Made by a program: the position numbers and the translations under genes | The notes under the pieces: model-generated | The model's input: only the letters and a program-made list of their open reading frames with translations | The model's database searches: none | Told to the model about the DNA's origin: nothing | Assembly: GCF_988242995.1 (NCBI RefSeq) | Contig: NZ_OZ547043.1 | Direction: 5' to 3' (one strand) | Length of the DNA stretch: 64,000 nt | Part shown: in pieces, positions 3,230 to 58,141 of the stretch | Layout: each line of letters starts with the position of its first letter | Numbering within the stretch: the first letter of the stretch is position 1

Positions 3230-3245
3230 TGAAAAAATCGTGCCA
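3230..3245 (-). promoter_or_regulatory. Sigma-54 promoter glnHp2 (-24 TGGCAC, N5, -12 TTTCA)
   Basis: Minus strand reads TGGCACGATTTTTTCA with the GG and GC elements at correct spacing, about 55 nt upstream of the glnH ATG. glnHPQ is an established NtrC/sigma-54 operon. Confidence 0.6.
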
Positions 3246-3318: not shown

Positions 3319-3347
3319 TGCACCATTCTGGGGCACCAAACTGGTGC
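3319..3347. promoter_or_regulatory. NtrC-type enhancer sites (GCACCA-N3-TGGTGC palindrome and an overlapping TGCACCA half-site)
   Basis: tgcaccattctggggcaccaaactggtgcgc contains the dyad GCACCAaacTGGTGC, about 90-115 bp upstream of the sigma-54 element. Confidence 0.5.
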
Positions 3348-3507
3348 GCTAAAATTGTGCACTCAACACAGTGATTATTTAGCGTAAAACCTGATGAAAA
3401 AACAATCTTTATGTAACGATTGTGTGATGATGTGGATACAAAAAATTTACTTAATCAGCTGGAGATAGCAGATGGATGCACTAAATAAGTGCGTTGAGGT
3501 GGGCTGC

Positions 3508-3578: not shown

Positions 3579-4226
<648 letters not shown>

Positions 4227-11132: not shown

Positions 11133-12728
11133 GTGTTAGTTTCCAGTAACGTCACCATGCAGTTCGGCAGTAAGCCGTTGTTTGAAAACATTTCCGTCAA
11201 ATTTGGCGGCGGCAACCGTTACGGCCTGATTGGCGCGAACGGTAGTGGTAAATCCACCTTTATGAAGATTCTCGGCGGCGACCTTGAGCCGACGCTGGGT
11301 AACGTTTCCCTCGATCCCAACGAGCGCATTGGTAAGCTGCGTCAGGATCAGTTTGCCTTTGAAGAGTTCACTGTGTTGGATACGGTGATCATGGGGCATA
11401 AAGAGTTGTGGGAAGTGAAGCAGGAGCGCGACCGCATCTATGCTTTGCCGGAAATGAGTGAGGAAGACGGCTATAAAGTGGCCGATCTGGAAGTGAAATA
11501 CGGCGAAATGGACGGTTACTCTGCGGAAGCTCGCGCCGGTGAACTGTTGCTTGGCGTGGGAATTCCAGTGGAACAGCACTACGGCCCGATGAGTGAAGTT
11601 GCTCCTGGCTGGAAGCTGCGTGTGCTGCTGGCGCAGGCGCTGTTTGCTGATCCGGACATTCTCCTGCTCGACGAACCGACCAACAACCTCGACATCGACA
11701 CCATTCGGTGGCTGGAACAGGTGCTGAACGAGCGTGACAGCACCATGATCATCATCTCGCACGACCGTCACTTCCTTAACATGGTTTGTACCCACATGGC
11801 GGATCTGGATTACGGCGAGCTGCGCGTTTATCCAGGTAACTACGATGAGTACATGACGGCGGCGACCCAGGCGCGTGAACGTCTGCTGGCTGATAACGCC
11901 AAGAAGAAGGCGCAGATTGCTGAGCTGCAATCTTTCGTTAGCCGCTTTAGCGCCAACGCCTCGAAATCTCGCCAGGCAACTTCGCGCGCGCGCCAGATTG
12001 ATAAAATCAAACTGGAAGAGGTGAAAGCCTCCAGCCGTCAGAACCCGTTCATCCGTTTTGAACAGGATAAGAAACTGTTCCGTAACGCGCTGGAAGTGGA
12101 AGGTCTGACCAAAGGGTTTGATAACGGTCCACTGTTTAAAAATCTCAACCTGCTGCTGGAAGTGGGTGAAAAACTGGCTGTACTGGGTACCAACGGCGTC
12201 GGTAAATCAACGCTGCTGAAAACGCTGGTGGGCGATCTGCAACCGGACAGCGGCACCGTAAAATGGTCTGAAAACGCACGCATTGGTTACTACGCCCAGG
12301 ACCACGAATATGAGTTTGAAAATGATCTGACCGTGTTCGAATGGATGAGCCAGTGGAAGCAGGAAGGCGATGACGAGCAGGCGGTACGCAGCATTCTCGG
12401 TCGTTTGCTGTTCAGCCAGGACGACATCAAAAAGCCAGCGAAAGTGCTTTCCGGTGGAGAAAAAGGGCGGATGCTGTTTGGTAAGTTAATGATGCAGAAG
12501 CCGAACATTCTGATCATGGACGAACCGACCAACCACCTGGATATGGAATCCATTGAGTCGCTGAACATGGCATTGGAACTGTATCAGGGCACGCTGATCT
12601 TTGTTTCTCACGACCGTGAGTTTGTAAGCTCCCTGGCGACCCGCATTCTGGAAATCACCCCGGAACGCGTGATCGACTTTAGCGGTAATTACGAAGATTA
12701 CCTGCGTAGTAAAGGGATCGACGGTTAA
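11133..12728 (+). CDS. ybiT: ABC-F family ATPase (two ATP-binding cassettes, no TM domain)
   Basis: Two Walker A motifs ([18 protein letters not shown]) and two ABC signatures; matches YbiT. The start is a GTG at 11133 and is not certain. Confidence 0.9.
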
Positions 12729-12865
12729 TTTCCCGCCGTCTTTCATGCGGCAGATGCATTGGCTTCACCTGTTCACCCCGGTCACTTACTTATTTAAGCT
12801 CCCGGGGTTTACAGGTTTGCTGCCTTCCTGCAGCGTGAAATACTGAGGTAAAGGATTCGATGGCT

Positions 12866-12896
12866 GGACCGGGTAAGGCGCAGTCGCCTCCCGGCC
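12866..12896. repeat. REP-like palindromic element (diverged)
   Basis: GGACCGGGTAAGGCGCAGTCGCCTCCCGGCC resembles the REP consensus (GCCGGATAAGGCG...CGCC..TCCGGC) with several mismatches. Confidence 0.35.
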
Positions 12897-12907
12897 CCGG
12901 TAATGAT

Positions 12908-15283
12908 TTAACGCATCCATTCACTCCCTTCAACACCATTGACCAGCAGCGTGCGTTTTTCTTCCACTGGTAATGACACTTTCAGTGCACTCCATGCAGG
13001 TCGATAATCCCCGCGCGCGTTGACTTTCAGGTTGATGGTCGCCCCATCGCAAACCATTTCCCATTCCACCCAAAGCGCATTACCAGTTTGGTAGCCCCAG
13101 CTTTCGCCATCGTCTTCAAACAGCAGGCCGGACGTTGTGCCCACACCTTTCAGCGGGAACAGTTTCAGTTCGCGGGTATCGTCTTGTTCTGCGCTCACAT
13201 AGGTGATGCGTTTGCTGAGCGGTAGACCAGCCCCGGCACGCACCATCAGCGGCAGTTTCTCCAGCGGTGCGTCGAGGGTGATCCACTGACCGCCACTGAA
13301 CCATTCGCCGTTGTAGAAATCGTACCAGCCAGTTTCGTTATCTGGCAGCCATACACGGCGCTGGCGCTCGCCTTGCTCTACGACGCTGGCAACCAAAATA
13401 TCGCGACCAAGCAGGAAGTCATCACACTCTTCAAAAGTCTGAACGTCGTGCTCGTGGTCAAGGAAAGTCGGACGTAGCATTGGTTCATCATCGGCGTATG
13501 CCTGCCACATCAGGGTATAAAAGTAGGGCAGCAGGCGATAGCGCAACTCAATAGCGCTGCGGATCGCCGGAGTGACGCCCGGATACATCCACGGTTCGTT
13601 TACGGTATGGTCATCGTTCCACGAGTGAATCGTAAAGCGCGGATGCATCACGCCGTTTTGTACCCAGCGTACAAACAGTTCCGGGTCCGGCTTATCACCG
13701 GAGAAACCGCCGACGTCGTGACCGAGGTTATACAGCCCGGAGAGGCTCATCCCCAGACCCATGCGGGTGTTGTAGCGCAGAGTGTCCCAGCTAGTGCGGT
13801 TATCGCCACTCCAGGTCTGCACGTAGCGCTGCATTCCCGCGCAGCCGGAGCGGGAGATCAAGTACGGACGTTTTTCCGGAGCGAAACGCTGCTGGGCTTC
13901 CATCGAGGCTCGCATCATCAGCAGTGGCATCACTGGGCGAATATGTTTGATCGCGATCGTCTGACCAAAGCCGTGACAGCGTGCTTCACCGTCCCATACT
14001 TCGAATTCGTTGTTGTCGTTCCAGGTGGAGTCGATACCCATCTCCAGAAGCTGTGTGGTCACGCCTTCCTGCCACCACTGGATGGTCTGCGGATTAGTAA
14101 AGTCGAGGTTAGAACCTTCGTCATCCCAGAAGCTGGAACGTTCTGGTTCATCTGTTTCTGAATCACGGATGAACAGTCCTCTTTCTGCCACTTCGTTATA
14201 GCGTGGGTGATCCTGCAACAGGCACGGCTTGATATTGGCGGCCAAGTGCAAACCAGCATTGTGAAATGCCTGGCTCATCACTTTCGGCTGCGGCACTTTG
14301 TCGTAATTCCAGTTGAACACATAGCGCTTGCCGTTAATTGAGGTATAACCGGAAGAGAGCTGGAACGAATCGCAGGGAATCGCATGTTCTTCACACAGGC
14401 GGATAAAGTTCATCAACTGATTTTGTGCGTCCGGCGCATCGGTGTAGTGCATAGTTGAACCGCTGTAGCCCAGGCTCCATTTCGGTCCGAACAGGGTTTT
14501 GCCGGTCAGGCGTACGAAGGCTTTGGTGATATCAAGTACGCGTTCGCCGGTAAACAGGTAGTAGTCGATATCACCCGCTTCCGCCTGCCAGCGGCGATAG
14601 GCGGTGTGGTAGTTGTCGATCTCGTTGCCCAGATCCAGCCAGCAGCTGCTGAGGTTGTCATAAAACAGGCCGAAGCTAACGTCATCGCGGCGGGTGATGG
14701 TGAATGGAATGTGTTTGTACAACGGGTCAGTACTAACGGCGTTGTAGCCCATCGCGTCGAGGTTACGCATCTCGTAACGTTTACCGTTGCGTTGCAGGTC
14801 GCCGGCTTTATCTCCGAGGCCATAAAAGCGTTCATCTTTACGACGGCTCTGATAGTGCGCCACGCCGTCGCCGTGGGCATTCAGCAGATAAGCGCTGGTC
14901 GGGCGGTCATTCACCAACGGCAGCCATTCGCCTTCGTTGTTACGATAGTGCCACTCCAGCCACAGCGGCTGGTGAACGGTGGCACGCAGTGACTCGGTGG
15001 CGATAACCACGGTGTCGTCGTGCTGGATCAATGTCCACGCGGGCAGGCTAAAGCCGCTGAGATCTTCGCGGCTGCGCCCTTCCCATGGCACATCCTGCGC
15101 CGGAGCAATGCTCCAGGTGCGATCCAGCGCCAGCTCGCCTTTGCGTTTTAACAGCACGCGGAACAGATTTTCTTCCAGCACGTACAGGCACAGGATATGC
15201 TGGCCATCGACCAGCAGTTCAACGTGGTGGGCAGACTGTTTGTGCAGGGTCCAGTTTTTCAGCGTTTTCATGTTTACATCCAT
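12908..15283 (-). CDS. Glycoside hydrolase family 31 alpha-glycosidase, cytoplasmic, substrate unknown
   Basis: 791-aa ORF with a GH31 nucleophile-region motif (GIDSTWNDNNEF, compare WIDMNE) and acid/base-region motif (VQTWSGDNRTSW). No signal peptide. Start may be the ATG at 15283 or 15271. Confidence 0.85.
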   Translation of the reverse strand: MDVNMKTLKNWTLHKQSAHHVELLVDGQHILCLYVLEENLFRVLLKRKGELALDRTWSIAPAQDVPWEGRSREDLSGFSLPAWTLIQHDDTVVIATESLRATVHQPLWLEWHYRNNEGEWLPLVNDRPTSAYLLNAHGDGVAHYQSRRKDERFYGLGDKAGDLQRNGKRYEMRNLDAMGYNAVSTDPLYKHIPFTITRRDDVSFGLFYDNLSSCWLDLGNEIDNYHTAYRRWQAEAGDIDYYLFTGERVLDITKAFVRLTGKTLFGPKWSLGYSGSTMHYTDAPDAQNQLMNFIRLCEEHAIPCDSFQLSSGYTSINGKRYVFNWNYDKVPQPKVMSQAFHNAGLHLAANIKPCLLQDHPRYNEVAERGLFIRDSETDEPERSSFWDDEGSNLDFTNPQTIQWWQEGVTTQLLEMGIDSTWNDNNEFEVWDGEARCHGFGQTIAIKHIRPVMPLLMMRASMEAQQRFAPEKRPYLISRSGCAGMQRYVQTWSGDNRTSWDTLRYNTRMGLGMSLSGLYNLGHDVGGFSGDKPDPELFVRWVQNGVMHPRFTIHSWNDDHTVNEPWMYPGVTPAIRSAIELRYRLLPYFYTLMWQAYADDEPMLRPTFLDHEHDVQTFEECDDFLLGRDILVASVVEQGERQRRVWLPDNETGWYDFYNGEWFSGGQWITLDAPLEKLPLMVRAGAGLPLSKRITYVSAEQDDTRELKLFPLKGVGTTSGLLFEDDGESWGYQTGNALWVEWEMVCDGATINLKVNARGDYRPAWSALKVSLPVEEKRTLLVNGVEGSEWMR

Positions 15284-15285
15284 TC

Positions 15286-16593
15286 TCAGGCGCGTTTTGC
15301 GCGACGTTCAGCAATAAAGGTGACCAGGAAGAAAGCACCAATCAGGTCAAAGAAGCCCATGGCGATAAACAGGGGGTTAAAGCCGATTTTGTCAGCGGTA
15401 ACCCCGATAATCAGGGAGAACAGGAAACTTGCGATCCACGCGGCAGAACCGCGCATGCCGTTAACAGTGGCCATCTGACCTTTGTCGAAGGATTCCACCA
15501 CCAGTGCGCTCAGCATGCAGGAGATGATCTGGTGACCGAAGCCGCCGATGGAAATAAGGACGATGGCGATATACGGGTTATTGGTAAAGGCCATCACCGC
15601 CAGCGAAACCATCAGGAATGCGCCACTGACCGATGATGCGACAACGGAGTTCACACGACTCAGCCCAAACAGGCGGGTGTAAAGTTTGGTCAGATAGCCG
15701 CTGGCAATACTGCCAAGATCAGCGGCGAGGAACGGCAACCAGGCGAATAATGCGATCTGCTTAAGGTCCATGCCATAGGTTTTGGACAGGTATAGCGGAA
15801 CCCAGAAACTCATCACCGCCCACGCCGGTTCTGCCATAAAGGCCGGGATAGCGATACCGTAAAAGCGTTTATTTTTGCCTACGGTTTTCAGTGCGGTCAG
15901 AAAGGGTAACTTGACAGGGGGCGCTTCGTTATCCTGGCGGATAAAGTCCAGCTCGGCTTTGCTGAGGTTAGGATGCTTATCCGGGTTGTGATAGAACGCC
16001 CACCACAGCACCACCCACAGCATCGCCAGGATGCCAGTGAACATAAATGCACCCTGCCAGCCGAATGAAGCGTGGGCAAAATAGATAATCGGTGGGGCCA
16101 GCATGGCACCGATGGAAAAACCGACGCCTGCCCAGCCTGCGGCGATCGGGCGTTCTGATTTTGGAAACCATTCACCGATGGTTTTGGCGTTTGCTGGGGT
16201 TGCCGCGGCTTCCGCACCGCCCATAAAGAAGCGCAACAGCGCCAGATGTACCCAGTTTCCCGCCCCCGCATGCATCAGACAGGCCAGCGCCCACAGTCCC
16301 GCGCAGATCATAAAGCCCAGTTTGAGGCCAATGACGTCAATCAGCCATCCACACAACGGTTGGAATAGGGTATAGGCGAGCTGGAAAGCACCTACAATCC
16401 AGGAATATTGTTCGGTGGTAATCCCCAGGCTGCTTTTCAGTTCGGGGGCGAGAATACCCAGCGAGTTACGCGTGATGTAGTTGACAGTAACACCGAGCAA
16501 AAAAAGGACCAGTATCCACCAACGCAGATTTTTGACGATATGGCGCGGTTTACTGGCAGTCATATCGTTATTGATACCCTGACTCATATGCAC
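15286..16593 (-). CDS. MFS transporter, anion:cation symporter (ACS) family-like
   Basis: 435-aa 12-TM-type ORF with an ACS-like N-terminal signature (RWWILVLFLLGVTVNYITRNSLGILAPE...). Its stop lies 2 nt upstream of the GH31 ATG, indicating an operon. Confidence 0.85.
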   Translation of the reverse strand: MHMSQGINNDMTASKPRHIVKNLRWWILVLFLLGVTVNYITRNSLGILAPELKSSLGITTEQYSWIVGAFQLAYTLFQPLCGWLIDVIGLKLGFMICAGLWALACLMHAGAGNWVHLALLRFFMGGAEAAATPANAKTIGEWFPKSERPIAAGWAGVGFSIGAMLAPPIIYFAHASFGWQGAFMFTGILAMLWVVLWWAFYHNPDKHPNLSKAELDFIRQDNEAPPVKLPFLTALKTVGKNKRFYGIAIPAFMAEPAWAVMSFWVPLYLSKTYGMDLKQIALFAWLPFLAADLGSIASGYLTKLYTRLFGLSRVNSVVASSVSGAFLMVSLAVMAFTNNPYIAIVLISIGGFGHQIISCMLSALVVESFDKGQMATVNGMRGSAAWIASFLFSLIIGVTADKIGFNPLFIAMGFFDLIGAFFLVTFIAERRAKRA

Positions 16594-16881
16594 TCCACAG
16601 AATGGTATAGGGTTTGTGCGGCAACGTCAGAATGGAGTTGTCACACCACTTTTAACTTTTTGATAAATAAAGTCTTTATTGTTCGTTTTTCCATTATTTT
16701 TGTATGGAAGTTGTTCTACCAATTCACAGTAAGAGACCCTAAAAGCGAAAGAAAGCGGGTTTTGTGCACGTTTTTCCATGAGTGACTGATATACATTACT
16801 GAAATGGATTTAATGCCAGACAGAATGGGCTTTTTTGCTCATGAAAATTCTGTCATTTCCGAATTAGAGGCAGATCACAAA

Positions 16882-17985
16882 ATGGACAAGAAGCTGAAAA
16901 TCGCCGATATCGCCGCACGTACCGGGCTATCGCCGAGTACGGTTTCGCGGGTGCTGGCTGGCAAAGCGAATACCAGTGCACGCGCTCGCGAACAGGTGCT
17001 GGCCTGCGCGCGTGAGTTGGGCGTGATGGATGGCATGGCAGCAGGTCGTATGTTGCTGAACAACCTGATTATTTTCGCGCCGCAACGCGCTTTTGACCAA
17101 CGATCTGATATCTTTTATTACCGTGTGATCCAGAGCATCAGCAAAGCGTTATCGCCGCATGAAGTGCGGCTGCGTTACTGCGCGCTGGAGGAGTTTGACA
17201 GCGATCCCGCGCTATTTCTCTCGCGGATGAATGAAGCAGATACGCAGGCGGCGATCCTGCTGGGGATTGACGATCCGCACATCCATGATCTGGCCGCCGA
17301 TCTCGCTAAGCCTTGTGTGCTGATCAACTGCCGTGATGAACGAATGCGCCTCCCGGCGATTGCGCCGGACCATCGGTTAATTGGCGCGTTCGCCGCCCGC
17401 TATCTGTTTGAAATGGGTCACCGGGAGGTGATGAATGTGATGTGCCTGCGCCGCTACACTATGGAGCAGCGGTTTGCAGGGATTAAAGAATCATGGCGTC
17501 AGCATAATCTGGCCTTTCACCATGACCGTCATTTGCTGAATATCAGCAGTTTTAGCGCTAAAGAAGCGGAAGAAAAGGTCGGAGCGTGGCTGGATGCCGC
17601 CAATGGCAAGACGTTGCCGACGGCGTTTCTGGTCGGCGGGGATTTTATGGCGGCGGGAACGGTAAATGCGCTACATCGTCGTGGTCTGCGCGTACCACAG
17701 GATGTCTCGGTGATGAGTATCGACGGCTTTAACCTTGCGGCAATCGAGGATGTTCCCCTGACGGCTGTGCATGTGCCACGCGATGAGCTAGGCAATGAAG
17801 CGGTGCAAATGTTGCAACAGCGGCTGATTCGCCCGGATGCTCCGGTGGGCTCGCTGCTGCTGCACGGACGATTGGCGGTGCGGGAGTCAGTGCGGCGGGT
17901 TCGCCCAGGAAAAGGGAACACCGCCGTGGAACGGGAAGGGCTGTACGACACTCAGCTGTCGATTCCCAACGCTCGCTTACCGTGA
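16882..17985 (+). CDS. LacI-family transcriptional regulator, divergent from the MFS-GH31 operon
   Basis: N-terminal HTH KIADIAARTGLSPSTVSRVL followed by a periplasmic-binding-protein-like sugar-binding core. Start chosen at MDKKLKIADI; upstream in-frame ATGs exist, so the start is uncertain. Confidence 0.8.
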   Translation: MDKKLKIADIAARTGLSPSTVSRVLAGKANTSARAREQVLACARELGVMDGMAAGRMLLNNLIIFAPQRAFDQRSDIFYYRVIQSISKALSPHEVRLRYCALEEFDSDPALFLSRMNEADTQAAILLGIDDPHIHDLAADLAKPCVLINCRDERMRLPAIAPDHRLIGAFAARYLFEMGHREVMNVMCLRRYTMEQRFAGIKESWRQHNLAFHHDRHLLNISSFSAKEAEEKVGAWLDAANGKTLPTAFLVGGDFMAAGTVNALHRRGLRVPQDVSVMSIDGFNLAAIEDVPLTAVHVPRDELGNEAVQMLQQRLIRPDAPVGSLLLHGRLAVRESVRRVRPGKGNTAVEREGLYDTQLSIPNARLP

Positions 17986-35490: not shown

Positions 35491-36819
35491 ATGTCCAGAA
35501 TCAATAAGTTCGTACTTACAGTCAGTCTGCTGATTTTTATCATGATTTCAGCAGTTGCCTGCGGGATCTACACTCAAATGGTAAAGGAACGGGTGTATGG
35601 CCTGAAACAGTCCGTTATTGATACTGCTTTTGCGGTGGCAAATATTGCTGAATATCGGCGTAGCGTGGCAATTGATCTCATCAACACGCTAAACCCCACG
35701 GAGGAACAGCTGTTGGTTGGTTTGCGCACAGCTTACGCCGACTCGGTTTCACCCTCTTATTTGTACGATGTCGGTCCTTATCTGATTTCCAGTGACGAAT
35801 GTATTCAGGTAAAGGAGTTCGAGAAAAATTATTGTGCAGATATTATGCAGATTGTGAAGTATCGACATGTCAAAAATACAGGGTTTATCTCTTTTGACGG
35901 TAAAACCTTCGTCTATTACCTCTATCCGGTAACTCATAATCGTAGTCTGATATTTTTGCTTGGTCTGGAGCGTTTTTCTTTACTGTCAAAATCGCTGGCG
36001 ATGGATAGCGAGAACCTGATGTTCTCTCTGTTTAAGAACGGTAAACCGGTGACCGGTGATGAATATAATGCTAAAAACGCCATCTTCACCGTTTCGGAAG
36101 CGATGGAGCACTTCGCCTATTTGCCGACCGGATTGTACGTATTTGCGTATAAAAAAGATGTTTATTTGCGGGTCTGTACATTGATTATTTTCTTTGCCGC
36201 ATTGGTGGCAGTGATATCGGGTGTCAGTTGCCTCTATCTGGTACGCAGAGTGATTAATCGTGGTATTGTGGAGAAAGAAGCCATCATTAATAACCATTTT
36301 GAACGCGTACTGGATGGCGGGCTTTTCTTTTCAGCTGCCGATGTCAAAAAACTCTACAGTTTGTATAACTCGGCGTTCCTGGATGACCTGACCAAAGCAA
36401 TGGGCAGAAAATCCTTTGACGAAGATTTAAAAGCGCTGCCGGAAAAAGGCGGTTATTTGTGCCTGTTTGACGTCGATAAATTCAAAAACATCAACGACAC
36501 CTTCGGTCATTTGCTGGGCGATGAAGTGTTGATGAAAGTGGTGAAAATCCTTAAATCACAGATCCCCGTAGATAAAGGTAAAGTCTACCGCTTCGGCGGT
36601 GACGAATTTGCGGTGATTTATACGGGTGGAACGCTGGAAGAGTTGCTATCGATTCTAAAAGAAATTGTTCATTTCCAGGTGGGAAGCATTAATTTAAGCA
36701 CCAGTATCGGTGTAGCGCATTCAAATGAATGTACTACCGTTGAACGCTTGAAAATGCTGGCGGATGAGCGGCTGTATAAGAGTAAGAAAAACGGCAGGGC
36801 GCAGATTAGCTGGCAGTAG
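35491..36819 (+). CDS. dgcI: Diguanylate cyclase (GGDEF domain)
   Basis: 442-aa ORF with the active-site motif RFGGDEF; matches YliF/DgcI. Confidence 0.9.
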
Positions 36820-36833
36820 AATTAGAATAGTGT

Positions 36834-36859
36834 TAGTACCCCTTAATCAAGGGGTACTA
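36834..36859. other. Perfect 9-bp-stem inverted repeat (TAGTACCCC-ttaatcaa-GGGGTACTA) at the dgcI / TA-module junction
   Basis: Read directly from the sequence; no flanking U-run on either strand, so the terminator role is uncertain. Confidence 0.4.
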
Positions 36860-36888
36860 ATGAATGTGGTAAATCATTTGCAAACATT

Positions 36889-37218
36889 TTACTTTGCAAA
36901 AACTTCCGGCCCTTTTATTGCCAATGTATTCAAAATACGTAATGCCGGGCCGCTCGGTTTTATTTCATTACGTTCCCATTTCGAGACACTTTCTTTTGAC
37001 ATTCCCATTGTATGTGCCAGCACGGATTGTGACATGCCGTATCGGGTGCGGATGGCTTTGATCTCTTCACCCGTCATTGATTTGACTTTGGCTATACGGG
37101 CGCTGACTTCACGAGCTTTGACCATGACGGCAATGGCATCAACTTCACTATCAGACATCAGGCCCAGTGCATTCAGTTCCTTTGCATCTTCCAGCATCAT
37201 TTGTAATTTATCGCTCAT
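36889..37218 (-). CDS. Type II antitoxin, HTH-XRE family (C-terminal helix-turn-helix)
   Basis: 109-aa ORF; the C-terminal segment ...IKAIRTRYGMSQSVLAHTMGMSKESVSKWERNEIKPSGPALRILNTLAIKGPEV fits an XRE/Cro-type HTH. It overlaps the upstream toxin ORF by 11 nt. Confidence 0.7.
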   Translation of the reverse strand: MSDKLQMMLEDAKELNALGLMSDSEVDAIAVMVKAREVSARIAKVKSMTGEEIKAIRTRYGMSQSVLAHTMGMSKESVSKWERNEIKPSGPALRILNTLAIKGPEVFAK

Positions 37219-37594
37219 TTTTCACCTCAATCAAAAAGCCAGTTTCGATCAAATCCTCTATTTGCTTATTGCTAAAGGCCAGAAATGCATTTGCCATTTT
37301 TTTGTAGGCCGCCAGTTCATCATCTTCGATTTCTTTGGTTCCTTTACTGCTTAGACCACTCTTGGACCAACCATCATAAAAAAACACATGATTTGCTGAT
37401 TTAAAAAAGATAATTGTTCTGGCTCCACCACTCTTTCCTTGTTGGAGGGGTAAACGTTTTTTGATGACACCGCTACCTAAATCAGCCTCCCATATGCCCT
37501 GCATCACTTCTTCAGCGGCAGCCATGAGAACTTTATCGTGAATACCAAGTTTTTTCGTGCTTTGGCTGAATCGTCTTGCCTTATACACACCCAT
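37208..37594 (-). CDS. Type II toxin, RelE/ParE superfamily (HigB-2/Gp49-like)
   Basis: 128-aa ORF preceded by SD AGGATGG; toxin-first gene order with an HTH antitoxin downstream, as in HigBA-type modules. The family call rests on pattern resemblance (GGARTIIFF...GWSKS...KEIEDDEL), not on an alignment. Confidence 0.65.
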   Translation of the reverse strand: MGVYKARRFSQSTKKLGIHDKVLMAAAEEVMQGIWEADLGSGVIKKRLPLQQGKSGGARTIIFFKSANHVFFYDGWSKSGLSSKGTKEIEDDELAAYKKMANAFLAFSNKQIEDLIETGFLIEVKNER

Positions 37595-37609
37595 ACATCC
37601 ATCCTTGTG

Positions 37610-37635
37610 GTAATGTTTACTATAGTAACCATTAC
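37610..37635. promoter_or_regulatory. 26-bp near-perfect palindrome (GTAATG-tt-TACTATAGTA-ac-CATTAC), candidate autoregulatory operator of the TA operon
   Basis: Starts 16 bp upstream of the toxin ATG; the central TACTATAGTA is perfectly palindromic. Confidence 0.5.
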
Positions 37636-37819
37636 GCTTATTTCAAGTAATTGCGATCAAAACTTTAATTTGGTGTGAAAAAGTGAGAGTTGCCTCGAGT
37701 ACGATTCATTTTTCTCGATTTATGCGTCAGGGGATTTTGTGCGTAAGGGTAGGACATCGGGAAGGGCAGCAGAGGCAGATCGAAGAACAATATCCTTGTT
37801 AGATCTGCCTTAAGATTAA

Positions 37820-53923: not shown

Positions 53924-54010
53924 TCGCAATCACATTACTGATCATGGTTTTGCCTGCGCTTTTTGCGTAAGCTGTGCCGGTCTTTTTATCGAAAGAGGTT
54001 GTACAAAATT

Positions 54011-54487
54011 ATGACATCGCTGGTCGTTCCTGGTCTGGATACGCTGCGTCAATGGCTCGATGACCTGGGGATGAGTTTTTTTGAATGTGATAACTGTCAG
54101 GCTCTGCATCTGCCCCATATGCAGAATTTCGACGGTGTCTTTGATGCCAAAATCGATCTGATCGATAACACGATCCTGTTTTCTGCCATGGCGGAAGTCC
54201 GACCTTCAGCCGTATTGCCCCTGGCGGCAGATTTATCTGCCATCAATGCCAGTTCGCTGACCGTGAAAGCATTTCTTGATATGCAGGATGATAATCTGCC
54301 AAAGCTGGTGGTTTGCCAGTCTTTATCCGTTATGCAGGGCGTAACCTATGAGCAGTTTGCATGGTTCGTGCGTCAGAGCGAAGAGCAGATTTCGATGGTC
54401 ATTCTTGAAGCTAATGCCCATCAACTGCTGTTACCGACTGACGATGAAGGGCAAAACAACGTTACCGAAAACTATTTCCTCCACTGA
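54011..54487 (+). CDS. ybjN: YbjN-family protein (putative sensory transduction regulator)
   Basis: Start MTSLVVPGLDTLRQWLDDLGMSFFECDNC...; 158 aa. Confidence 0.9.
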   Translation: MTSLVVPGLDTLRQWLDDLGMSFFECDNCQALHLPHMQNFDGVFDAKIDLIDNTILFSAMAEVRPSAVLPLAADLSAINASSLTVKAFLDMQDDNLPKLVVCQSLSVMQGVTYEQFAWFVRQSEEQISMVILEANAHQLLLPTDDEGQNNVTENYFLH

Positions 54488-54761
54488 TAACTCCTTTCGA
54501 GTACGCAGTCGCTGCCGCAGTGACTGCGTGCTGCAAAATTATCTGCTGTTTTTAACCTTTTCTTAAAGATTATTTCACTTCTCTTGTGCCGATTTGGCTT
54601 TATCACATAGAGCAAATACGCATAAAAATTTGTTAAATACCGTTTTTTAATCCGAGCTATAGTCTCAAACCCTGGCTAAAGTTATTCTTGCGATGCTTTT
54701 ATATAGCGAGCAGTGCTGGCCGGGAGAGAGTTCTCTTTTCTTACACCGCGCCGATAAAAAA

Positions 54762-54781
54762 TATGCACGTTTATTGCATAT
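54762..54781 (+). promoter_or_regulatory. Sigma-54-like element upstream of potF (TGCACG-N4-TTGCA)
   Basis: atatGCACGtttaTTGCAtat has correct spacing and the -12 GC, but one G of the -24 GG is missing (TG). It lies about 55 bp upstream of the potF ATG. Weak call. Confidence 0.3.
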
Positions 54782-54837
54782 CTTTCAGTGTGACAACTTT
54801 TGTTCGTTTGTTAACGAACTTTCAGAAGGAAAGAGAT

Positions 54838-55950
54838 ATGACCGCCTTAAATAAAAAATGGCTATCGGGTCTGGTTGCGGGTGCTCTGATGGCCGTCTCT
54901 GTCGGCACGCTCGCGGCTGAACAAAAAACACTCCACATTTATAACTGGTCTGATTATATCGCCCCGGACACGGTGGCCAATTTTGAAAAAGAAACCGGTA
55001 TTAAAGTCGTCTACGATGTTTTCGACTCTAACGAAGTACTGGAAGGCAAATTAATGGCGGGTAGCACCGGCTTTGACCTGGTGGTGCCGTCAGCAAGCTT
55101 TCTTGAACGCCAGTTGACTGCGGGAGTTTTCCAGCCGCTGGATAAAAGCAAATTGCCGGAGTGGAAGAATCTCGACCCGGAACTGCTGAAGTTGGTTGCC
55201 AAACACGACCCGGATAATAAATTTGCTATGCCCTATATGTGGGCGACAACCGGGATTGGCTATAACGTCGATAAAGTCAAAGCGGTGCTGGGCGAAAACG
55301 CGCCCGTCGATAGCTGGGACTTGATCCTCAAACCTGAAAATCTGGAAAAACTGAAAAGCTGCGGCGTCTCTTTCCTTGATGCACCGGAAGAAGTGTTTGC
55401 TACCGTGCTGAATTATCTCGGCAAAGATCCCAACAGCACTAAAGCGGATGATTACACCGGACCGGCAACCGATCTGCTGTTAAAGCTGCGCCCGAACATT
55501 CGTTATTTCCATTCATCTCAATACATTAACGACCTGGCAAACGGCGATATTTGCGTCGCTATCGGCTGGGCAGGTGATGTCTGGCAGGCGTCAAACCGCG
55601 CGAAGGAAGCGAAGAATGGCGTTAATGTCTCGTTCTCGATTCCGAAAGAAGGGGCGATGGCGTTCTTTGATGTCTTCGCCATGCCTGCGGATGCCAAAAA
55701 TAAAGACGAAGCCTATCAGTTCCTGAATTACCTGCTGCGCCCGGATGTGGTGGCGCATATTTCCGACCATGTGTTCTATGCCAACGCGAACAAAGAAGCT
55801 ACGCCGCTGGTAAGCGCGGAAGTGCGTGATAATCCAGGGATTTATCCTCCGGCGGACGTTCGTGCGAAGTTGTTCACTCTGAAAGTGCAGGATCCAAAAA
55901 TAGACCGTGTGCGCACCCGCGCGTGGACCAAAGTGAAGAGCGGAAAATAA
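54838..55950 (+). CDS. potF: Putrescine-binding periplasmic protein
   Basis: Start MTALNKKWLSGLVAGALMAVSVGTLAAEQKTLHIYNW...; 370 aa. The track's 50-codon upstream extension is rejected. Confidence 0.95.
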   Translation: MTALNKKWLSGLVAGALMAVSVGTLAAEQKTLHIYNWSDYIAPDTVANFEKETGIKVVYDVFDSNEVLEGKLMAGSTGFDLVVPSASFLERQLTAGVFQPLDKSKLPEWKNLDPELLKLVAKHDPDNKFAMPYMWATTGIGYNVDKVKAVLGENAPVDSWDLILKPENLEKLKSCGVSFLDAPEEVFATVLNYLGKDPNSTKADDYTGPATDLLLKLRPNIRYFHSSQYINDLANGDICVAIGWAGDVWQASNRAKEAKNGVNVSFSIPKEGAMAFFDVFAMPADAKNKDEAYQFLNYLLRPDVVAHISDHVFYANANKEATPLVSAEVRDNPGIYPPADVRAKLFTLKVQDPKIDRVRTRAWTKVKSGK

Positions 55951-56044
55951 TCCGCAGTCGTAGATGCCGGACGGGCGCACCACGCCCGCCGGCAATTCGC
56001 ACCATTATGGTGCGCTTGCACACATTCAATGCCGGAGAGCAGCC

Positions 56045-57178
56045 GTGAATGACGCTATCCCTCGCCCGCAGGCGAAAACCCGTAAGGCGCTGACGCCGCT
56101 ATTAGAAATCCGTAATCTGACTAAATCTTACGATGGTCAGCATGCGGTCGATGATGTCAGCCTGACCATCTATAAAGGCGAAATCTTCGCGCTGCTGGGC
56201 GCATCCGGCTGTGGCAAGTCCACGCTGCTGCGTATGCTGGCAGGTTTCGAACAACCTTCTGCCGGGCAGATTATGCTCGATGGCGTCGATTTGTCACAGG
56301 TTCCGCCTTACCTGCGCCCCATCAATATGATGTTTCAGTCTTACGCGCTGTTTCCGCATATGACCGTGGAACAGAACATCGCTTTTGGCCTGAAACAGGA
56401 CAAACTACCGAAAGCGGAAATTGCCAGCCGGGTCAATGAGATGCTCGGCCTGGTGCATATGCAGGAGTTCGCCAAACGCAAACCGCATCAGCTTTCCGGC
56501 GGTCAGCGACAGCGTGTGGCACTGGCCCGAAGCCTTGCCAAGCGCCCGAAACTATTACTGCTCGATGAGCCTATGGGCGCGCTGGATAAAAAGCTGCGTG
56601 ACCGGATGCAGCTTGAAGTGGTGGATATTCTGGAGCGTGTCGGTGTGACCTGCGTGATGGTTACTCACGATCAGGAAGAGGCGATGACCATGGCGGGGCG
56701 CATCGCCATTATGAATCGTGGGAAATTTGTCCAGATTGGCGAACCGGAAGAGATCTATGAGCATCCGACCACCCGCTATAGCGCTGAATTTATTGGCTCG
56801 GTTAATGTCTTTGAATGTGTACTCAAAGAGCGCCAGGAAGATGGTCTGGTGCTTTATTCGCCGGGGCTGGTGCATCCACTGAAAGTCGATGTAGATGCTT
56901 CGGTGGTCGATAACGTGCCGGTGCATGTGGCGCTTCGCCCGGAAAAAATCATGCTTTGCGATCAACCGCCTGCTGACGGCTACAATTTTGCGGTGGGGGA
57001 GGTGATACACATTGCCTATCTCGGCGATCTTTCGGTGTATCACGTTCGTCTGAAAAGTGGGCAAATGATTAGCGCCCAGCTACAAAACGCCCATCGTCAT
57101 CGTAAAGGGTTACCGACCTGGGGCGATGAAGTGCGTTTGTGCTGGGAAGTGGACAGCTGTGTGGTGCTGACGGTTTAA
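56045..57178 (+). CDS. potG: Putrescine ABC transporter ATP-binding protein
   Basis: GTG start giving MNDAIPRPQAKTRKALTPLLEIRNLTKSYDGQ...; Walker A GASGCGKST; 377 aa. Confidence 0.9.
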   Translation: MNDAIPRPQAKTRKALTPLLEIRNLTKSYDGQHAVDDVSLTIYKGEIFALLGASGCGKSTLLRMLAGFEQPSAGQIMLDGVDLSQVPPYLRPINMMFQSYALFPHMTVEQNIAFGLKQDKLPKAEIASRVNEMLGLVHMQEFAKRKPHQLSGGQRQRVALARSLAKRPKLLLLDEPMGALDKKLRDRMQLEVVDILERVGVTCVMVTHDQEEAMTMAGRIAIMNRGKFVQIGEPEEIYEHPTTRYSAEFIGSVNVFECVLKERQEDGLVLYSPGLVHPLKVDVDASVVDNVPVHVALRPEKIMLCDQPPADGYNFAVGEVIHIAYLGDLSVYHVRLKSGQMISAQLQNAHRHRKGLPTWGDEVRLCWEVDSCVVLTV

Positions 57179-57187
57179 GGAGCAAAA

Positions 57188-58141
57188 ATGAGTACACTTG
57201 AACCTGCTGCCCAGTCGAAACCGCCGGGCGGATTTAAGCTGTGGTTGTCGCAGCTGCAAATGAAGCATGGGCGCAAACTGGTGATTGCGCTGCCGTATAT
57301 CTGGCTAATCCTGCTGTTTCTGCTGCCATTTCTGATTGTCTTTAAAATAAGCCTGGCGGAGATGGCGCGCGCTATTCCACCTTATACCGAACTGATGGAG
57401 TGGGCTGACGGGCAACTTTCCATCACTCTTAATCTCGGTAATTTCCTGCAACTGACCGACGATCCGCTCTATTTCGATGCTTATCTCCAGTCGTTACAGG
57501 TGGCGGCGATTTCGACTATTTGCTGTTTACTGATCGGCTATCCGCTGGCGTGGGCGGTGGCGCACAGTAAGCCTTCGACCCGTAATATCTTATTACTACT
57601 GGTGATCCTGCCGTCGTGGACCTCGTTTCTGATTCGTGTCTACGCCTGGATGGGAATATTAAAAAATAACGGCGTGCTGAATAACTTTCTGCTGTGGCTG
57701 GGGGTTATCGATCAACCGCTGACAATTCTTCATACCAATCTGGCCGTTTATATCGGCATTGTTTACGCCTACGTGCCGTTTATGGTGCTGCCGATTTATA
57801 CCGCGTTGATTCGTATTGATTATTCGCTGGTGGAAGCAGCACTGGATCTCGGTGCACGACCGCTGAAAACGTTCTTTACTGTGATCGTGCCGCTGACCAA
57901 AGGGGGGATTATTGCCGGATCGATGCTGGTATTTATCCCGGCTGTGGGCGAGTTTGTGATCCCGGAACTGCTCGGTGGCCCGGACAGCATCATGATCGGG
58001 CGCGTGCTGTGGCAGGAGTTCTTTAACAACCGCGACTGGCCGGTGGCCTCGGCGGTAGCGATCATCATGTTGCTGCTGCTAATTGTGCCGATAATGTGGT
58101 TCCACAAACACCAGCAAAAAAGCGTGGGAGAACACGGATGA
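57188..58141 (+). CDS. potH: Putrescine ABC transporter permease
   Basis: 317-aa permease; matches PotH. Confidence 0.95.
   Translation: MSTLEPAAQSKPPGGFKLWLSQLQMKHGRKLVIALPYIWLILLFLLPFLIVFKISLAEMARAIPPYTELMEWADGQLSITLNLGNFLQLTDDPLYFDAYLQSLQVAAISTICCLLIGYPLAWAVAHSKPSTRNILLLLVILPSWTSFLIRVYAWMGILKNNGVLNNFLLWLGVIDQPLTILHTNLAVYIGIVYAYVPFMVLPIYTALIRIDYSLVEAALDLGARPLKTFFTVIVPLTKGGIIAGSMLVFIPAVGEFVIPELLGGPDSIMIGRVLWQEFFNNRDWPVASAVAIIMLLLLIVPIMWFHKHQQKSVGEHG

Follow-up and report, generated by a model that had tools for sequence, protein, structure and literature searches.

Organization of the potF-potG spacer

The stretch of DNA analyzed here, referred to below as the window, comprises 64,000 nucleotides of contig NZ_OZ547043.1 (NCBI RefSeq assembly GCF_988242995.1), is E. 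coli DNA and carries the genes of the potFGHI operon. A spacer of 94 bp separates the first two of these genes, the potF stop ending at 55950 and the potG GTG beginning at 56045, as read from the sequence and in agreement with the RefSeq annotation. That annotation was compared in E. coli CFIAFB20140388, which is 100% identical over 601 bases around the spacer, and in K-12; the 601-base stretch occurs exactly once in 5417 of 5426 complete E. coli genomes. A first-pass annotation made from the letters of the window had described a stem-loop (55966-55993) followed by a perfect 17-bp palindrome (55998-56014) inside this 94-bp spacer, and all three were confirmed in the sequence. The features of the locus are as follows.

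54762-54778, plus strand: potFp, sigma-54 promoter TATGCACGTTTATTGCA (motif scan, sequence, published ChIP-seq and SELEX)
54838-55950, plus strand: potF, putrescine-binding periplasmic protein gene (open reading frame list; RefSeq annotation of the identical strain and of K-12)
55965-55994, plus strand: REP-like GC-rich intercistronic hairpin of 12 pairs with one bulged A and the loop CACCA (fold)
55998-56014, no strand assigned: high-affinity NtrC (GlnG) box CGCACCA-TTA-TGGTGCG (core match; published SELEX, EMSA and ChIP)
56017-56033, no strand assigned: putative weak second NtrC site TGCACAC-ATT-CAATGCC, or third half-site TGCAC(C) (inferred)
56034-56047, plus strand: potG Shine-Dalgarno sequence GGAG (56034-56037) and GTG start (56045-56047) (sequence, annotation)
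56045-57178, plus strand: potG, ATP-binding subunit gene, with potH and potI next (open reading frame list; RefSeq annotation)

As part of the overall explanation developed below, we regard the spacer as probably holding two unrelated elements, a DNA site (the palindrome) and an mRNA hairpin (the GC stem-loop). The sequence of the potG start region, CCGGAGAG, is near-invariant in the 80 species compared. A scan of positions 54000-58000 with the Rfam covariance models, at E-values up to 10, returned no match in the spacer.

Several observations concern the surroundings of these elements. A weak sigma-70-like match, TGGACC-16-AATAAT, lies on the plus strand at 55924-55951, where it overlaps the potF stop; it is a consensus match only (9 of 12 positions), and the region around it holds five such matches, compared with 1.9 in shuffled sequence. 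In E. coli 7CC (L087, NZ_CM137006.1), the hairpin, the NtrC box and potG are kept while the DNA preceding the hairpin has no relation to potF and lacks an annotated potF coding sequence, probably owing to a rearrangement or insertion. Elsewhere in the window, two segments are absent from K-12: 5.2 kb between ybiT and ybiU (12722-17958), encoding a GH31 glycoside hydrolase (791 aa), an MFS transporter (435 aa) and a LacI-family regulator (393 aa), and 1 kb between dgcI and rimO (36819-37814), encoding a RelE-family toxin (128 aa) and an HTH/MqsA-like antitoxin (109 aa).

A single-copy NtrC box between potF and potG

The palindrome CGCACCATTATGGTGCG at 55998-56014 is perfect, with two 8-nt arms around one central base. 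The earlier proposal that it matches the NtrC consensus TGCACCA-N3-TGGTGCA stands for the core, GCACCA-N3-TGGTGC, which is matched exactly, and fails at the two outermost bases, so that 12 of the 14 specified positions agree. Among NtrC sites, conservation is strongest in the GCA...TGC letters. With at most one mismatch, this core is found three times in the 64-kb window, at the palindrome and twice at the glnH enhancer, whereas shuffled windows hold 0.28 such matches on average and none of 100 shuffles reaches three. Among nine aligned E. coli spacers the half-sites are invariant, and the central three nucleotides alone vary (TTA, TCA or ACA).

The first-pass annotation had also allowed for a REP-like structural element, a description that applies to the GC stem-loop and not to the palindrome. 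At 17 bp the latter is too short for the REP/BIME form and its center is too AT-rich; rather than belonging to a widespread REP family, it occupies one place per genome, being single-copy in 5415 of 5426 E. coli genomes by blastn. We conclude that the palindrome is a single-copy NtrC box and not a REP sequence.

Three nucleotides past the box there is a YTGC[AC]C motif (56016-56023), whose GC occupies two fixed alignment columns in 33 of 42 distinct sequences. The Enterobacter/Leclercia group has TGCACCA (TTGCACCA) here and the Kosakonia/Buttiauxella group TTGCCCCA; the E. coli species representative (L003) has TGCACCC and this window TGCACAC. Some genera also show pairing of the motif with a GGGGC that lies upstream of the box or within the box center. 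We consider the motif a putative weak second NtrC site. A sigma-54 reading of the TTGC[AC] past the box was rejected: a GG at the correct spacing is confined to some genera (Phytobacter, Kluyvera) and is missing from E. coli, and the sequence is therefore not a consistent promoter.

The window also carries the NtrC sites of glnHPQ, as the first-pass annotation had stated. Here, the glnHp2 control region holds three overlapping NtrC-like sites in 13-bp steps (starting at 3319, 3332 and 3345 and spanning 3319-3361), among them the sequences GCACCAAACTGGTGC and GCACCATTCTGGGGC, together with the glnH sigma-54 promoter TGGCACGATTTTTTCA on the minus strand (3230-3245), an arrangement that fits published ChIP data.

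Published NtrC binding at the spacer

Binding of NtrC in the potF-potG spacer is already known from published genome-scale data, and the enhancer geometry alone is possibly new. Genomic SELEX located an NtrC peak in this spacer at 95% of the maximum, and purified NtrC gel-shifted a "potG" probe (Shimada et al., 2021; PMC8743547). We mapped the primers of that probe to 894658-895077 of NC_000913.3, an interval that contains the palindrome at 894944-894960. A ChIP-seq study of IPTG-induced FLAG-NtrC in LB reported a peak at 893859-894438 with its maximum at 894191, the tenth strongest of 62 and labeled intergenic (Aquino et al., 2017; PMC5217608). These coordinates refer to U00096.2, whose offset from NC_000913.3 at the locus is 777, as checked on the potFp motif, which puts the center of the palindrome at 894175, 16 bp from the ChIP-seq maximum. 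The presence of an NtrC-type site inside the potFGHI operon, as first suggested from sequence, is thus borne out by genomic SELEX, gel shift and induced ChIP-seq.

In vitro binding of NtrC at the box is firm. Occupancy in vivo, which the first-pass annotation had named as a check, has been shown with the induced protein only: native-level tagged NtrC in nitrogen-starved cells gave 21 ChIP-seq sites, none of them at potF or potG (Brown et al., 2014; PMC4066584). The published peak lists of Shimada et al. (2021) and Aquino et al. (2017) contain no NtrC peak upstream of potF. The former authors named the target the "potGHI operon" and treated the spacer as a "potG promoter"; the latter gave potFGHI as lacking previous evidence of direct NtrC binding, despite the spacer peak in their own list. 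Upon nitrogen depletion, mRNA of potG rises 6.0-fold and that of potI 3.2-fold, and activation was stated to require RpoN and NtrC (Shimada et al., 2021).

potFp is the sole sigma-54 promoter found in the locus

The promoter potFp, about 1.22 kb upstream of the box, carries TG at -24, an unusual replacement for GG, and its 3' end is separated by 60 nt from the potF ATG. Its 17-mer is the sigma-54 ChIP-seq site OS08 assigned to potF (PMC4591121) and corresponds to the strongest genomic-SELEX peak of the RpoN holoenzyme (PMC8743547). The motif, [TG]GCA[CT]-N5-TTGC[AT], is conserved in 53 of 80 species. None of these 80 species has an NtrC-like site with three or fewer mismatches in the 400 bp upstream of potF.

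A search from potFp to 60542, on both strands and with up to two mismatches, found no sigma-54 motif and thus no internal GG-N10-GC motif for potGHI. Holoenzyme alone gave no genomic-SELEX peak at the spacer (PMC8743547), and the sigma-54 ChIP-seq list (PMC4591121) has no site at 8940xx-8945xx. Since the box lies only 30 bp from the potG start codon, and since a sigma-54 motif, a ChIP site and a holoenzyme-alone peak are all missing at the spacer, the "potG promoter" label is unsupported by the sequence. We rejected an internal sigma-54 promoter at the spacer on motif spacing and on the published sigma-54 ChIP and genomic-SELEX data.

The box and the sigma-54 promoter co-occur across species

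We fetched the potF locus from 80 species and extracted the spacers. Promoter and box are both present in 49 species and both missing from 26, with four species having the promoter only and one the box only. In other words, the box, with intact or near-intact GCAC...GTGC cores, is found in 49 of the 53 species with a potFp-type motif, the conservation asked for by the first-pass annotation, and in none of the 26 species without a sigma-54 promoter motif upstream of potF. The sole box-only species, Kluyvera genomosp. 1 (L021), is classed so on the stricter motif and has another sigma-54-like motif at -281. The association gives 9e-16 in Fisher's test, which ignores the relatedness of the species, and the "neither" species are mostly Yersiniaceae, Pectobacteriaceae and similar families, such that those outside Enterobacteriaceae may reflect a single ancestral event. 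Within Enterobacteriaceae, there are separate joint losses of promoter and box: in Salmonella the box is absent and the potFp -12 element has changed from TTGCA to AGGCA, while in Yokenella the box is absent and a 2-nt deletion has shortened the potFp spacer.

Where both elements occur, the promoter-to-box distance ranges from 1209 to 1391 bp (median 1235). Exact GCAC...GTGC cores around a free center are found in 46 species belonging to many genera. In a 13-sequence alignment across genera, no core pair of the palindrome changes while the adjacent hairpin covaries, the pattern typical of a site that a protein recognizes.

The box is kept in two spacer layouts, after a REP-like hairpin in the E. 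coli/Citrobacter/Enterobacter group and before three other hairpins in the Kosakonia/Kluyvera/Buttiauxella group. This second architecture, of about 140 nt, consists of the box, hairpins GGACAGAGG...CCTCTGTCC and then GTACGGCAACCGGGCCGTAC or CAACCTGTTGAAACAGG, and may be a structured intercistronic RNA; it was seen in loci L020, L023, L028, L029, L031, L033, L035, L037, L039, L045, L046, L055, L059, L063, L065, L076 and L081 (spacers at about 3613-3755). Longer spacers of 267-270 nt in Rahnella (L056, L057) and one Buttiauxella (L073) carry an insertion of about 125-130 nt, with starts of the form ACCCGTCATACTTCAAGC..GCAGATGCGTTG, which we take to resemble an ERIC/IRU-type repeat. The spacers of another Buttiauxella (L062) and of a Pectobacterium (L072) contain inserted sequence of a different kind.

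A REP-like hairpin follows potF

The stem-loop GCCGGaCGGGCG-cacca-CGCCCGCCGGC (55966-55993) is predicted to fold in RNA at -24.6 kcal/mol (z = -4.75), a stability not equaled by any of 200 shuffles. Its fully paired 11-bp stem is a minority allele: the 47-nt stretch is found at 99% identity or more in only 27 E. coli records among 5,426 complete genomes, and most matching records carry two to four differences. K-12 has two stem substitutions, which bring the fold to -17.5 kcal/mol. The hairpin is thus highly polymorphic within E. coli, yet all sampled alleles fold, at -17.5 to -24.6 kcal/mol, and one of them shows a compensatory change of C-G to A-T. Across genera, the 13-sequence alignment reveals compensatory changes at six pairs.

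The hairpin has the REP/BIME form, a GC-rich imperfect palindrome of about 30-40 nt in a transcribed extragenic region. Membership of a dispersed REP family was nevertheless rejected, as the hairpin, the palindrome and both together occur at one place per E. coli genome (blastn with 71-, 47- and 37-nt pieces), a REP-style pattern and canonical REP arms find no match in it, and the sole canonical REP arm of the 64-kb window sits elsewhere than in the spacer. In Leclercia, Enterobacter and Klebsiella, one to three recognizable REP-type units with GTAGGCCGGGCAAGCG-like sequence occupy the aligned position, singly or as inverted pairs, and such motifs recur elsewhere in those loci; compared with these units, the E. 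coli hairpin has kept only GTAG...GCCGG...CCGGCAA. On this comparison of sequences, we describe the E. coli hairpin as a rapidly evolving, structure-conserved, single-copy REP-like remnant.

An intrinsic (Rho-independent) terminator was likewise rejected for the E. coli hairpin, which is followed by AAUUCGCACC with no U-tract; a U-tract is likewise missing after the palindrome, and no terminator-like site was found on the plus strand of 54400-56400. By its anatomy and by comparison with known hairpins, the hairpin probably stabilizes the 3' end of the potF mRNA. The literature searched contained no potF Term-seq or RIL-seq report, the supplements of an E. coli 3'-end mapping paper list neither potF nor potG, and no transcript data on differential expression of potF and potGHI, on 3' ends at the hairpin or on half-lives were found.

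The inverted-repeat scan also picked up an NtrC-type half-site, GCGCACCA, at the top of the hairpin (55975-55982, with CGCACCA at 55976-55982 on the plus strand), which repeats the right arm of the box (56008-56015) exactly over 8 nt, in inverted orientation. It was seen in E. coli alleles only and in none of the other genera compared, and could allow either a long-range alternative pairing in the mRNA or a third half-site in the DNA.

Comparison with known systems

The box shares its recognition sequence, activator, sigma-54 partner and physiological signal with the NtrC enhancers of glnAp2 and glnHp2. Those sites lie about 100-140 bp upstream of their promoters in pairs or triplets, whereas the potF-potG box stands alone as a strong site, within the transcription unit and about 1.22 kb downstream of potFp, the only sigma-54 promoter in the locus. 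In terms of distance, the closest likenesses are relocated NtrC sites, which activate by looping (Reitzer and Magasanik, 1986; Hao, Shearwin and Dodd, 2019, via PMC7408454), and the relA site, which lies inside rlmD at 649-838 bp from the RelA translational start (PMC4066584); together they cover looping over 0.6-6 kb, a range like that proposed here. The long-distance relocated cases are engineered constructs while the box is natural, and the relA site is still upstream of its promoter while the box is downstream of potFp. The literature searched gave no description of a natural NtrC enhancer located downstream in an intercistronic spacer.

The hairpin has counterparts of its own. REP hairpins between the genes of a binding protein and of membrane components were described at malE-malF and hisJ-hisQ by Higgins and co-workers in the 1980s. 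Like them, the potF-potG hairpin is a GC-rich imperfect palindrome with no U-tract right after a periplasmic binding-protein gene, and its structure is conserved while its sequence drifts; unlike them, it is single-copy and stands outside the dispersed E. coli REP families. At the same potF-potG position, Yersinia, Serratia, Pectobacterium and Dickeya carry an intrinsic attenuator or terminator, with hairpins ACAGGCGG...CCGCCTGT followed by a T-rich run that the E. coli hairpin lacks, and these genera have neither the NtrC box nor the sigma-54 promoter. The Yersinia-type attenuator and the E. coli hairpin presumably serve the same purpose, more PotF than PotGHI.

A remote enhancer downstream of potFp as the best explanation

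The evidence favors a main role of the box in enhancing the potF sigma-54 promoter from a distance over a role within an internal promoter. This assignment follows from three observations: box and promoter co-occur, no NtrC-like site lies upstream of potF, and no sigma-54 motif lies near the box. NtrC is reported to lose little of its activating power at distances of 1 kb and beyond, and to act from up to 6 kb away (reviewed in PMC7408454). Our best explanation, in which we infer the enhancer step, is that the box acts on potFp from about 1.22 kb downstream while the hairpin protects the potF message, and we give it a probability of about 0.6.

When nitrogen becomes limiting, the box would be occupied by an assembly of phosphorylated NtrC, perhaps aided by the weak adjacent site, and looping would bring this assembly to the closed complex that sigma-54 polymerase forms at potFp. 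Opening of this complex would turn on potFGHI, and RNA polymerase starting from potFp would then read through its own enhancer. In the resulting mRNA, the stem-loop would block 3'-to-5' decay, such that the potF message would outlast that of potGHI; on its anatomy and on comparison, this is the most likely role of the hairpin. Two points speak against the enhancer reading, namely the four species with the promoter and no box and the native-level NtrC ChIP-seq with no peak in the spacer, and the second site that NtrC oligomerization needs is weak in E. coli. More tentatively, and at somewhat less than even odds, the box could be the sole natural enhancer of potFp, placed in the first intercistronic spacer as an on-switch and possibly also as a brake that, with the hairpin, sets the ratio of PotF to PotGHI.

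Other roles for the box

Box-bound NtrC might instead be a roadblock to polymerases coming from potFp, so that transcripts end near the hairpin and the PotF:PotGHI ratio rises under nitrogen limitation. The box does lie in a transcribed region, 4 nt past a stable hairpin able to protect a new 3' end; it co-occurs with an Ntr-dependent promoter, and induction declines along the operon from potG to potI. We consider such a brake unlikely as the role of the box, although it could coexist with an enhancer role: the 6-fold rise of potG implies substantial read-through, potFp would be left with no NtrC site anywhere in the locus, and the box of the Kosakonia/Kluyvera group stands upstream of the hairpins and not after one. 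Sigma-54 bound within genes also showed no roadblock effect (PMC4591121), an argument by analogy only. Decidedly less probable is an internal NtrC/sigma-54 promoter that drives potGHI apart from potF and has the box as its upstream activator site. Shimada et al. (2021) gave potGHI as the target, and reported both a genomic-SELEX peak at the spacer with RpoN holoenzyme plus NtrC, at 45% of the maximum, and a shift of the potG probe by the holoenzyme (PMC8743547). Against this stand the results with holoenzyme alone, sigma-54 ChIP-seq and the motif search described above, the GG nearest to the post-box TTGCA, which is 3 nt too close, and the 30 bp between box and start codon, when a distance of about 70 bp or more from the start site is required of NtrC sites (PMC7408454).

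The two remaining readings deny the box a regulatory role. It might genuinely bind NtrC and yet serve no function, as a relic or as a high-affinity decoy that arose by chance, given that chance alone would supply about 0.3 exact core matches in a genome of this size (4.6 Mb / 4^12), that 61 of 93 NtrC genomic-SELEX sites lie inside open reading frames and that native ChIP did not call the site (PMC4066584). Its retention in about 49 species amid an otherwise fast-changing spacer, and the way it tracks the promoter, make this very unlikely in our judgment. We give least credence, and very little, to the view that both elements are purely structural tandem RNA/DNA hairpins of the REP/BIME kind and that the NtrC match is coincidental. 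The palindrome can fold as RNA (-10.1 kcal/mol, z = -2.5), is longer than 17 bp with covarying outer bases in some genera, and has REP-type units at the neighboring position in related genera; it is, however, single-copy in E. coli, the letters of its stem are fixed across genera beyond what pairing asks while the adjacent hairpin covaries, NtrC binding has been published in vitro and in vivo, and the box is lost along with the sigma-54 promoter.

Implications

If the box is indeed a remote enhancer of potFp, it would represent a natural enhancer working inside its own transcription unit, kept in about 50 enterobacterial species and lost together with its promoter, an arrangement that until now has been demonstrated mainly with engineered constructs. 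The locus would then offer a simple chromosomal model for the coexistence of an enhancer-bound AAA+ activator with elongating polymerases, and a model for how the placement of a regulatory site may couple induction to subunit stoichiometry in ABC transporter operons.
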